Shown here: positions 1 through 3,000 of the stretch, one piece after another
Layout of the letters: each line of letters begins with the position of its first letter
Position numbering within the stretch: the stretch's first letter is position 1
DNA from: a virus
Lineage: Duplodnaviria; Heunggongvirae; Uroviricota; Caudoviricetes
IMG/VR virus record: IMGVR_UViG_2537561716_000012
Strand: one strand, 5' to 3'
Length of the DNA stretch: 4,325 bases
Made by a program: the position numbers

Positions 1-3000
1 AAGGTTTTTACGTCAGATTCTTTTGGGATTGGCTTGCGTTTATTTCTGGAGCGTTTCGTTGGAAGGTATTTGCAGTTTTCGCAGATGATGTCGGTGATAC
101 TTCGTCGCTATCGCCTCATGCCGCCCTCCTGACGCCCTGCCCGATCGCCATCAATGCCGCTTTGGATACGGTAGTAAACATCCGTCGAGGACTGATGAAC
201 GGTCGCCAAATCAGCAACATTGAGCCTTTGCTGTTTCCCTTCTTCTCCAGCCCTGTCGATGGTTCGATAAAATTAATCCGTCCATCAGTGATGATGCGAA
301 CTTCGTCAACACTCTCCAGAGCCTTGCTGAACCATCCGACAGACATATCCTCTGGCACAAGCATCACTACCGTCTGTCGCTGTTGTATGCACTGCTCAGC
401 GGCTTTTTCCACCCACGGCCTGATATTGCTGTACGGTGGGTTATTCCAGATTGCACCGTGGCTTATCCACTCAGAATTTAGCGCGTCGTCAGCCTCAGTT
501 AGCCAGTGAGCGCACAGAGCGTTTTTGTCGCTCGCAGCTGAATCCAGCCAGAATCCAAACTCAATATCCAGCGCATCAAAAAGCCAGAGCGGCGTTTGCC
601 AGCAGTCCTTGTCGTGTGCTGGCGTATTTGATTTGATAGTCATGCAGCCTTCCCTTTTCGTTGTGACCATTCATACTCTCGCCGGGAGTCATCACTCCAC
701 CGCACGTTGCGCTCTGAGCCGAACCAGAACATGATTTCGATAAGCTCAGTCATGCTGGCCTTTCGCATTTTGCTGGTACGCACGCCAAGCATGACAACGC
801 CACCGTCGATACCAGGCGCACTTCTTTGCTCCAGTTTTTTGGTCTTAAGCCACAGGGCAGTGAACAGGTCTTTCCAGTCTTCCGGCGCCAGCCGTTGACC
901 ATGCCATAGCACCTGACGCGAAACATCGTTCAGCATCGGCCACATGCGGTCATTCTGCGCTTTGCTGCGCTTGGGTTCTTTAACGTGGACTTCGTGGGGT
1001 GACTTGTCGTCGATGGGTAGTGAGAGAATGGCGTCTATGGCGTTATTTCTGATTGCTTCGTTGCGAAGCAGAAAGGTTTGCTTCATCTCCTGCTCTCCGG
1101 TTCCATTTTTCAGTAGCCGCAGCAACTGATGGTGCCCATGCCACCCTGGCTTCACAGAGGTCACATTCTGCATAGCCCCACACATCAATATTTATTCCGG
1201 CCTCAACCCACAGACGAGCATTACCGCCGCAAAACGGACATTCTTTTAGCTTTGGCTGGGTTAATGATAGGTCGCTCATGCTCACTCCTTCACTTAAAAT
1301 CCAGACTCCGGATAATTCTGTTGCGCTGAAACTCATTGTTGAGTTTGAACAACCGTCGAAGAACACGGTCACGCGGATAGCGTCGTGCGGCAGGTGAATG
1401 CTCATACAACTCATCAAGCGGCAAACTGGACGATGAACGATACCGATACCAACGCACCAACTCTTCACGAAAATTAGCCCTGACAAGCTCAGCTATCGTA
1501 CTCATTTCTTAAAACCTCCTCAAACGCATTCTGACGCATTTTTCATTCTCGCTGCTTATCGGCATACCTTGCACGTGCTTACCTCACCACAGAGCGATTG
1601 TGATGCCTTAAAAGCGATTTATTGAAGTGATATTTGCTTAATCGAAATTATTTTCTTTGATTCCTGCGGCCCTGATGGCTTTCATTACTGCAATTACCGT
1701 TTTGTCACGCCCATCCTCATAACCCATCGCATAAGCACCTTCTTCACCATCTTTCCAAAGGTCGTCATTCGATTCGGGCCAGTCGATATCCAGTTCAATA
1801 GCAGAGCGCGATGCCTGCCATATCACCCAGGCAAACTCTTTTAATTCATCGTCTCCCGTGAACTGGCTTTTGTCTTTTGACCACCAGTTTTCAAACTGTC
1901 GGTAGCTATCGTTCACTTCCCTCTCCCCCAAATAAAAAGGCCTGCGATTACCAGCAGGCCTTTTATTGACTCAGTGATGTAGATGGTCATACGTCAGCCC
2001 CTTGTGCATATCGTCTGCCACGCGCAGCAGGTGCATTTGATGCTGTGCAAATCTGTCTGGCTTCATCCTGGTCACATGCAACAAAGTGTCCGTTACAGAA
2101 CCGCTGGTAAACTGTACCAAGCGAGCCAAAACGGTTTTTCGTCACGATGATTTCAGCAAATGGCGCGGCGCTACTGTTCTCATCATATACCGCTTCCCGA
2201 TAGAGCATGATGATTGAGTCTGCGTCCTGTTCAATGCTTCCTGAATCACGCAAATCTGCGTTTGTCGGGCGTTTGTTTGGTCGCTTCTCAACATCGCGCG
2301 AAAGCTGACTCAGGGAGATAACCGGTGTTTTCAGGTCTTTCGCCATCGCCTTCAGGCTTCCGGAGATGTGAGCAATTGCGAGGTCGTTGCGGTCTGCTTT
2401 CGGCTTCTCAATCAGGCCAAGATAATCCGCCATGATGAGTGACAGGTTTGGATTTTCCTGCTTATGCCGTTCTGCGATTGAGCGTATTTCTTCGACCGAT
2501 AACCGCGAAGCATCGACTACCCATACATCCAAATCTGCAAGCTGACTCATGCCGTTAGCAACACGTGCCCAGCCCTCGTCATCCATCGATGCAGGATTTC
2601 GCAGTACGCTAACCGACATCCTCCCGGCGTTGGCAATGCTTCGCTCTGCAATCTGCAATGCGCTCATTTCCATTGAGAAAATCAATACCCCGCGCCGGAC
2701 GTCAGAACCAGGAATAACGCGGCTTGCCACACCTTCGGCAATCTTCAGCGCCAGTTCGGTTTTCCCCATACCAGGACGAGCGGCGATAATCACCAGGTCT
2801 TCTGCGTTCATCCCTCCAGTGATAGCGTCAAGCTCTTCGATTCCGGTCTTCAGGGTATCTGACTCTTCTCCGTTCCTCAGACGCCTGTCAAGCGTGTCAG
2901 TGTAGTCAGTGATGATTTCCCCTAACCGTACAGGTTTAACCTCGTCACGGGGCTTTCTGATGGCTGAAAGACGCTTTACAAGTTCATCCATCGCCTGACT

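Follow-up and report, generated by a model that had tools for sequence, protein, structure and literature searches.

A 4,325-nucleotide stretch of viral DNA (IMG/VR record IMGVR_UViG_2537561716_000012; Duplodnaviria; Heunggongvirae; Uroviricota; Caudoviricetes), hereinafter the window, carries three small genes between a tR2-type terminator and ninB, namely gene 1, which encodes a member of the phiTE_015 family, gene 2, which encodes a DUF7301 protein, and gene 3, which encodes a Lar-family zinc ribbon protein denoted Lar78. These are probably intact accessory genes, separate from one another, that belong to the nin region of a Shiga toxin (Stx)-converting lambdoid prophage of the 2851/Nil2/Sakai/933W type, such that the trio is one of many combinations found at this location and not a co-adapted cassette. 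Judging by homology, the Lar gene is the only one of the three that is linked to restriction evasion, and both the genes and their families, as well as the variable character of the slot that they occupy, are already known in public annotation. An initial annotation of the window had viewed the three genes, together with a nearby Dam-type methyltransferase, as a counter-defence hotspot. The Lar and Dam annotations and the variability of the slot are upheld by the present analysis, whereas the notion of a dedicated module and the anti-defence role of genes 1 and 2 are not.

A variable slot with independently assorting genes

Across lambdoid phages, the flanks of the slot are conserved, and from 0 to 5 small genes are found between the tR2 linker and ninB, so that this slot is indeed a variable hotspot. 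There is no annotated gene in lambda or P22, one gene in Oslo and also in mEpX1 (in the latter case, for a small membrane protein), two genes in HK97 and mEp506, three in SF3, the same three as in the window in VT2-Sakai, and four in BTP1, which has one further gene upstream of the terminator. The junctions between modules lie at gene boundaries (window positions ~1917, 1644, 1519, 1272 and ~1100) and, in sequence terms, the slot is a case of classic lambdoid mosaicism. It bears the label 'region V' in Sato's records of Stx1 and Stx2-II phages, and genes 1 and 2 are already in GenBank in 933W and VT2-Sakai.

We constructed hidden Markov models (HMMs) for the three families, with the Lar model derived from trimmed domains, and used them to scan ~250 GenBank and IMG/VR loci; newly found subtypes of Lar and DUF7301 were verified against Pfam. 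The diversity of the loci was obtained with single distant queries; the family-alignment query yielded near-identical loci only from IMG/VR and just 6 loci from the species-level genome set. We denote the phiTE_015 family F, DUF7301 D, Lar L, NinB N and any other gene x. The arrangement of the window, F-D-L-N, is the commonest one, owing to the many near-identical Stx phages in the sample. Altogether, more than 40 arrangements were detected, among them D-x-N, F-x-N, F-N, D-N, D-L-N, D-F-x-N, D-F-D-L-N, D-F-L-N, F-L and D-L-F. For example, phi24B has DUF7301 and Lar with no gene 1 (D-L-N), Dewey has only DUF7301 ahead of ninB, Stx2a phages combine DUF7301 with other small genes, and in BTP1, DUF7301 precedes the gene 1 family, with no Lar (D-F-x-N).

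The counts point in the same direction. Lar is found within 2.5 kb in only 5 of the 79 diverse phiTE_015-family loci, and 64 of the 79 loci centred on DUF7301 have no Lar within 2 kb. When the DUF7301 sequences are clustered, Lar is seen with only 4 of the 11 clusters and never with the other 7. Co-occurrence combined with a kept order across lineages, as would be the mark of a co-inherited cassette, was not found. Thus, we have to conclude that 'cassette' or 'module' does not describe these genes, which recombine independently at gene boundaries. The rest of the cargo comes from families nearly all of which are without an assigned function (PHROGs 2239, 5903, 1165, 1603, 9493 and 6308, and DUF4752); Lar-family members, by homology, are the only candidates for anti-defence cargo in the slot.

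The genes of the nin region in general are non-essential, tightly packed and mostly of unknown function (PMC8022706). The nin regions of lambda, P22 and phage L (ren, ninA to ninH) share with the window the same operon, the tR2 linker, the ninB border, the tight packing and the non-essential character; the difference is that there are three genes between tR2 and ninB in the window and no annotated ones in lambda and P22.

A separate feature of the slot is that whichever gene lies just upstream of ninB ends in a shared tail of ~13 amino acids (aa), EAN-x-x-ASQRSNQK (the regions concerned are 1043-1086 in the window, 1850-2044 in locus L007 and 1948-2244 in locus L017; proteins P0018, P0024 and P0029 are among those with this tail). 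Unrelated proteins share this C-terminus because the tail is encoded by the conserved 5' overlap of ninB at the recombination junction. One further candidate for a Lar-like protein in this position, gp60 of HK97, which is encoded just upstream of ninB and was picked by eye, had no BLASTP or Pfam match to Lar and was discarded.

Gene layout, relatives and transcription signals

All relevant genes are on the minus strand of the window, with the following features listed in the direction of transcription:

3360-4034, minus strand: replication gene O, 5'-truncated
1987-3363, minus strand: DnaB-type replicative helicase, the phage 'P' gene (DnaB_C and DnaB Pfam domains; PHROG 19), the final gene ahead of tR2
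1930-1964, minus strand: tR2-type intrinsic terminator
1638-1916, minus strand: gene 1, phiTE_015 family, 92 aa (RefSeq WP_001000130.1)
1506-1637, minus strand: non-coding spacer of 132 nucleotides (nt) between genes 1 and 2
1290-1505, minus strand: gene 2, DUF7301, 71 aa (RefSeq WP_000103678.1)
1043-1279, minus strand: gene 3 (Lar78), Lar-family zinc ribbon, 78 aa (RefSeq WP_001449504.1)
640-1086, minus strand: ninB, Orf-type recombination mediator (PF05772, E = 2e-48; PHROG 72)
116-643, minus strand: phage orphan Dam-type N6-adenine DNA methyltransferase (PF05869, 218 bits; TIGR01712, 264 bits with a cut-off of 97; PADLOC orphan methyltransferase models)

The coordinates and the RefSeq calls, which cover genes 1, 2 and 3, agree with the initial annotation in that three small intact genes lie between a tR2-type terminator and ninB. 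In RefSeq, gene 1 is named hypothetical and, more recently, 'phiTE_015 family protein', gene 2 DUF7301 family protein, and gene 3 Lar family restriction alleviation protein. Each of the three is preceded by a Shine-Dalgarno sequence. Gene 1 starts ~15 nt after the terminator, the gap between genes 2 and 3 is 10 nt, and gene 3 overlaps ninB by 44 nt; the description of the three as tightly packed is thus only partly correct, given the 132 nt between genes 1 and 2. The orphan Dam gene downstream of ninB was also correctly identified: the Pfam, TIGRFAM and PADLOC models concur, the score reaches the equivalog level, the gene is flanked by ninB and ninE with no adjoining restriction gene, and its start overlaps the ninB stop.

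At the DNA level, the window is 99.4-99.6% identical to Stx phages 2851, Nil2 and Stx2a_WGPS8, 98.4-99.3% identical to the VT1-Sakai and VT2-Sakai Stx phages, and ~99% identical to 933W. The 889-bp block with the three genes is present, at a coverage of at least 80%, in 437 of the 5426 complete E. coli genomes of the collection (~8%) and also in 106 phage records.

The terminator has a tR2-type fold, with an 11-bp G+C-rich stem, an 8-nt loop and a U-run (-20.9 kcal/mol, z = -2.65), and the homologous site is annotated as tR2 in phage Nil2. A simple terminator scan of the window did not call the 1930-1964 hairpin, probably because an A/U extension of the stem consumes part of the U-run. The terminator is located inside a 76-bp linker (window 1990-1915) that is conserved in lambdoid phages and delimits the slot on its upstream side, being 93-97% identical in lambda (95%), Oslo, BTP1, Dewey, one Stx2a phage and phi24B; in P22, the match to this region is 90% over a longer, 135-bp stretch. 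In lambda, the linker adjoins ninB directly and, therefore, nothing lies between tR2 and ninB, contrary to the initial statement that lambda holds only ren here: the lambda tR2 segment comes after ren. A promoter scan of the coding strand from the helicase gene to ninB found no sigma-70-like promoter, and the 132-nt spacer, which accompanies DUF7301 in Stx2a phages and is missing from phi24B, yielded no promoter, no match to an RNA family and no stable fold (fold z = 0.21). The sole Rfam match in the window is a sub-threshold one, to STnc390, over the terminator (1927-2001, minus strand; 22 bits against a cut-off of 50).

Two features of related loci concern the neighbouring genes. In the Stx2a phage LC616047 (locus L010, 12-1811), the DnaB-type helicase appears to contain a large insertion, intein-like by eye: its C-terminal 257 aa are 100% identical to the window helicase, with ~340 unrelated residues ahead in the same open reading frame (ORF). 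In the same phage, a divergent NinB is followed by a 200-aa ORF, HNH-like by eye, and then by Dam.

The Lar-family protein

The assignment of gene 3 to the Lar family is secure at the level of the profile scores (37.8 bits against PF14354, with a cut-off of 28.6, and 61.4 bits against TIGR03655, with a cut-off of 39.6) and of the alignment with Rac Lar/RalR (E. coli K-12 b1348), which belongs to the same Pfam and TIGRFAM family. Over 58 aa, the two proteins are 36% identical (E = 3e-10), and 4 of 4 cysteines are conserved. The zinc ribbon of Lar78 has the CxxC...CxxC form, with C14, C17, C39 and C42 followed by EKWNRR, all aligned with RalR, so that both CxxC pairs and the C-terminal ExWNxR are shared. 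The genomic settings are comparable as well, in that both genes adjoin a phage recombination gene, with Rac lar/ralR directly downstream of recT and Lar78 beside ninB. The differences are that Lar78 belongs to the pR/nin operon and not to the recET operon, and that it carries the 13-aa tail from the ninB overlap.

RalR has been reported to be a toxin, a non-specific DNase, the antitoxin of which is a small RNA, RalA, and not a protein (PMC4041452). No RalA-like RNA was detected in the window by an Rfam scan, where the existence of an Rfam model for RalA was not established. Alleviation of type I restriction with enhanced modification in vivo is known only for Rac Lar (King & Murray 1995, as cited in PMC4041452).

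The Lar gene is not kept in all relatives. In EDL933-Stx (CP111102) and Min27, it is interrupted, with a two-piece tblastn match that is consistent with a frameshift, and in several IMG/VR loci it is truncated, with the L024-type genes (L024 and L032) stopping after CEARGGM. Because of these interruptions and truncations, the sequences suggest that the Lar gene is dispensable in some Stx phages. A mechanical 147-aa ORF (1043-1486, minus strand) extends the Lar frame upstream through the DUF7301 gene, in a frame other than that of DUF7301; part of it was used in the old annotation of Nil2, as ORF31.

Lambda Ral would be the expected functional analogue of Lar78, although no sequence relationship between the two is known. 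The lambda protein is expressed early, from pL, whereas the Lar78 gene is placed behind tR2. Ral is a small protein that alleviates type IA restriction and makes M.EcoKI a de novo methylase (PMC3874165).

The phiTE_015-family and DUF7301 proteins

Gene 1 starts with GTG and encodes 92 aa, as in RefSeq; if translation began at the TTG at 1931 instead, the product would have 97 aa. It matches PHROG 343 (E = 4.8e-29), and its close homologues carry the precomputed PF26207; the family HMM matches the namesake phiTE_015 protein over its full length (E = 2.4e-14), and a profile search of 1.84 billion cluster representatives yielded 457 clusters at 50% identity for this family. The conserved parts are an N-terminal helix with the motif xSRxQFExW, a core with W-x-A-W-Q-A-S-R-A-A-I-E and a C-terminus with AIRAAGIKVKE, and the segments between these parts are hypervariable. 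The protein is acidic and Trp-rich, as first described (isoelectric point (pI) 4.3, net charge about -10.5, 6 Trp, ~23% Asp/Glu). The acidity resides in a variable insert, positions 41-71, with 12 acidic and 2 basic residues. The AlphaFold2 (AF2) model, with a predicted local distance difference test (pLDDT) score of 67, contains predicted helices 3-16, 23-38 and 72-83, the acidic insert being unstructured (pLDDT <50). Because the pI of the family spans 4.2 to 9.6 (with 11 of 139 members above pI 8), acidity is not a family trait. A comparison with the acidic DNA mimics, T7 Ocr and ArdA, is suggested by the small size and acidity of the gene 1 protein; it lacks, however, sequence or fold similarity to these proteins, and its charge lies in a variable, low-confidence insert and is not family-wide. 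Neither a PDB sequence match nor a BFVD fold match to known DNA mimics was found, the latter being a weak test with a low-confidence model.

The phiTE_015 family also shows its own mosaicism. Some members have N-terminal additions, either a CxxCxGxG...CxC zinc-ribbon module or a module starting with MRWAIKHKSGR; in one member, the N-terminal half is present twice (these proteins are among P0124, P0126, P0145, P0148-P0150 and P0206), and the N-terminal and C-terminal halves recombine separately.

The gene 2 protein consists of 71 aa and, in accord with its initial description as a small basic, Arg-rich protein, has a pI of 10.8 and 14 Arg. The match to DUF7301 (PF23975) scores 91.4 bits (cut-off 27), with residues 1-64 aligned to positions 1-64 of the 65 in the profile, and the protein also matches PHROG 1785 (E = 2e-33). 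Nearly all named DUF7301 homologues come from Escherichia, including E. albertii, with divergent, Pfam-confirmed members in other IMG/VR viral contigs. Across the divergent set, RDRV is invariant, within a YPRDRVLRRL-like motif, and the AF2 model (pLDDT 73.6) is a predicted all-helical hairpin. A relationship to helix-turn-helix proteins through the DUF7301 homologue P0112, which has P22_Cro and YdaS Pfam matches, was considered and rejected: P0112 is a chimera with an unrelated N-terminus. In the IMG/VR loci L209 and L214, two DUF7301 paralogues flank a phiTE_015-family gene, in the order D-F-D-L-N, and in that gene a different N-terminus is fused to the same acidic insert as in gene 1 of the window.

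Thus, genes 1 and 2 are not unclassified or undescribed, as had been stated, given that the former belongs to PHROG 343/PF26207 and the latter to DUF7301. Neither has a match of known function in Pfam, NCBIfam, PADLOC or PDB sequences, these searches yielding at most family names, and a literature search retrieved no publication naming DUF7301, PF26207 or phiTE_015. On conjugative plasmids, neither gene was found: the matches in the plasmid search are prophage-like and come nearly all from non-mobilizable E. coli records. Sequence, profile and fold searches with both small proteins disclosed no link to any anti-defence protein, and with no PADLOC, PDB or fold connection and no presence on conjugative plasmids, the suggested anti-defence function of genes 1 and 2 is unsupported. 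A true anti-defence role appears doubtful for gene 1 and doubtful to the same degree for gene 2.

A possible scenario for the three accessory genes

If the three are separate accessory genes, what could they be doing? Because genes 1-3 lie behind tR2 and have no promoter-like site of their own, they would be transcribed within the pR delayed-early operon, only upon N-type antitermination through tR2, and would function together with NinB and Dam when the phage grows lytically or is induced. Such delayed-early timing would be too late to shield an incoming genome and fits a role on replicating progeny DNA.

Lar78 would then act on the type I restriction-modification (R-M) enzyme, with less restriction and more de novo modification of new, unmodified phage DNA as the outcome. 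That Lar78 acts on type I R-M in the manner of Rac Lar is an analogy to which we would assign a chance slightly short of even. Alternatively, Lar78 might act directly on DNA, like the RalR DNase; such a DNA-processing role is kept open because of the DNase activity of RalR and because Lar-family genes are found beside recT in Rac and beside ninB in the window. The gene 1 protein would be a conserved three-helix scaffold with a swappable acidic insert and the DUF7301 protein a basic helical hairpin with an invariant Arg-rich motif. Going by these predicted models, the two small proteins probably bind to or modulate a protein of the host or the phage, or a nucleic acid, within the same setting of DNA transactions.

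Several observations weigh against this interpretation. The phiTE_015 family is present in 10 of the 11 DUF7301 clusters, the three families share the slot more often than purely random assortment might suggest, and there may be some functional coupling between them. In particular, F directly before L recurs in at least five lineages, that is, phiTE and four from IMG/VR (L159, L164, L198 and L200), with different subtypes of both families in the latter four. As regards function, Lar78 scores 28.7 bits against the RalR equivalog model NF007260, below the cut-off of 113, and is therefore a paralogue of the experimentally tested protein; every mechanistic step of the scenario rests on analogy. 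The AF2 models of genes 1 and 2 had no Foldseek match with E <3 in BFVD or PDB, a negative that is weak evidence because the pLDDT is only 67 and 74. Finally, in this particular strain, the expression of the three genes may be impaired because the insertion sequence (IS) IS1203 sits between pR and the nin genes.

IS1203, of the IS3 family, starts at 4037 (window region 4035-4325). Compared to the otherwise 99.8% identical prophage of strain 28RC1, 500 bp are deleted beside the IS, with the loss of ~49 codons from the 5' end of O, of an ORF of 53 codons and of a fragment of cII. It is likely that this prophage is defective in replication. The IS1203 junction was not found in any complete E. coli genome of the collection (5426).

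Alternative explanations

The first alternative to be considered is that the three genes and Dam comprise a dedicated counter-defence island, in which the acidic protein would inhibit in the manner of a DNA mimic, and the basic protein would serve as a further inhibitor, directed at a restriction or other defence system. The slot is hypervariable, like known anti-defence loci, and lambda ren, an anti-exclusion gene, is located just upstream of the same terminator; moreover, the gene 1 protein does have a net charge of -10.5, and F-to-L and D-to-L adjacency recurs, the latter as D directly followed by L in two divergent lineages. The Lar-family and Dam annotations hold, and phage methyltransferases are classed as anti-RM by DefenseFinder-style tools (PMC12502783). 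All this notwithstanding, the genes assort independently and are delayed-early, behind tR2; neither the sequence nor the fold searches disclosed a resemblance to Ocr, Ard or anything in PADLOC or the PDB; the acidity of gene 1 is confined to the swappable insert and is not a trait of the family; genes 1 and 2 were not found on conjugative plasmids; and the other genes of the slot likewise have no assigned function. We therefore regard such an island as unlikely.

No better placed, in our estimate, is the possibility that the three genes are accessories of recombination or replication, with Lar78 and its neighbours working jointly with NinB on DNA or repair proteins, for instance in the processing or protection of replication and recombination intermediates, and with restriction alleviation being an indirect by-product. 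This hypothesis could accommodate the overlap of the Lar78 gene with ninB, the location of Rac lar/ralR directly downstream of recT, the reported non-specific DNase activity of RalR (PMC4041452) and the abundance of recombination functions in the nin region, with NinB, NinG and RusA (PMC8022706). It is also compatible with the observation that recombination itself can trigger EcoKI restriction alleviation (PMC11109961). It would not account for the fact that most phiTE_015-family and DUF7301 loci are without Lar, or that many ninB genes have none of the three genes upstream, and neither the gene 1 nor the gene 2 protein showed a fold of the nuclease or DNA-binding kind.

Less likely still, though a modest lead, is a scenario in which the phiTE_015-family and Lar proteins are partners in a two-part system that acts on type I restriction enzymes or DNA, with DUF7301 as an optional third component. 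In Pectobacterium phage phiTE (NC_020201; locus L019, 8969-9647), phiTE_015 is directly upstream of, and overlaps, phiTE_014, which contains the PF14354 Lar domain; the two families paired here are those of genes 1 and 3. The setting is quite different, phiTE being a virulent, rV5-like myovirus in which there is no DUF7301 between the two genes, no ninB nearby, and a Lar protein with a C-terminal extension of ~75 aa. A partnership would explain why, with differing subtypes, the two families keep the same adjacent order both in several lambdoid lineages and in phiTE, which is unrelated to them. However, in the DUF7301-centred sample of non-dereplicated loci, the F-L association has an odds ratio of 3.5 with p = 0.08, which is not significant, and adjacency of F and L is expected by chance fairly often in a slot with, as a rule, no more than one to four genes.

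Finally, a toxin-antitoxin-like pair for host takeover or abortive functions, in which the basic DUF7301 protein would neutralise a RalR-like DNase activity of Lar78, has in its favour the antitoxin-then-toxin geometry (the two genes are 10 nt apart in the window and, in the divergent pair of IMG/VR locus L142, overlap by 4 nt) and the fact that RalR is a toxin (PMC4041452), yet is very improbable, given the 64 of 79 DUF7301 loci without Lar within 2 kb, the 7 of 11 clusters that are never found with Lar, the occurrence of Lar without DUF7301 in L143, L159, L164, L176 and phiTE, and the small RNA, not protein, nature of the RalR antitoxin (PMC4041452).

Implications

Taken as three separate accessory genes in a mosaic slot, the trio adds little as a discovery, and its anti-restriction reading rests on one homology-based name. 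What the analysis does bring into focus is that DUF7301 and phiTE_015/PF26207 are widespread families of small proteins without an assigned function and that at least ten families of this kind occur between tR2 and ninB, which makes the slot a reasonable and cheap target for a screen of accessory genes. Given that these genes are carried by Stx phages of E. coli O157:H7 and related pathogens, their function would be relevant to the spread of Stx phages between strains.

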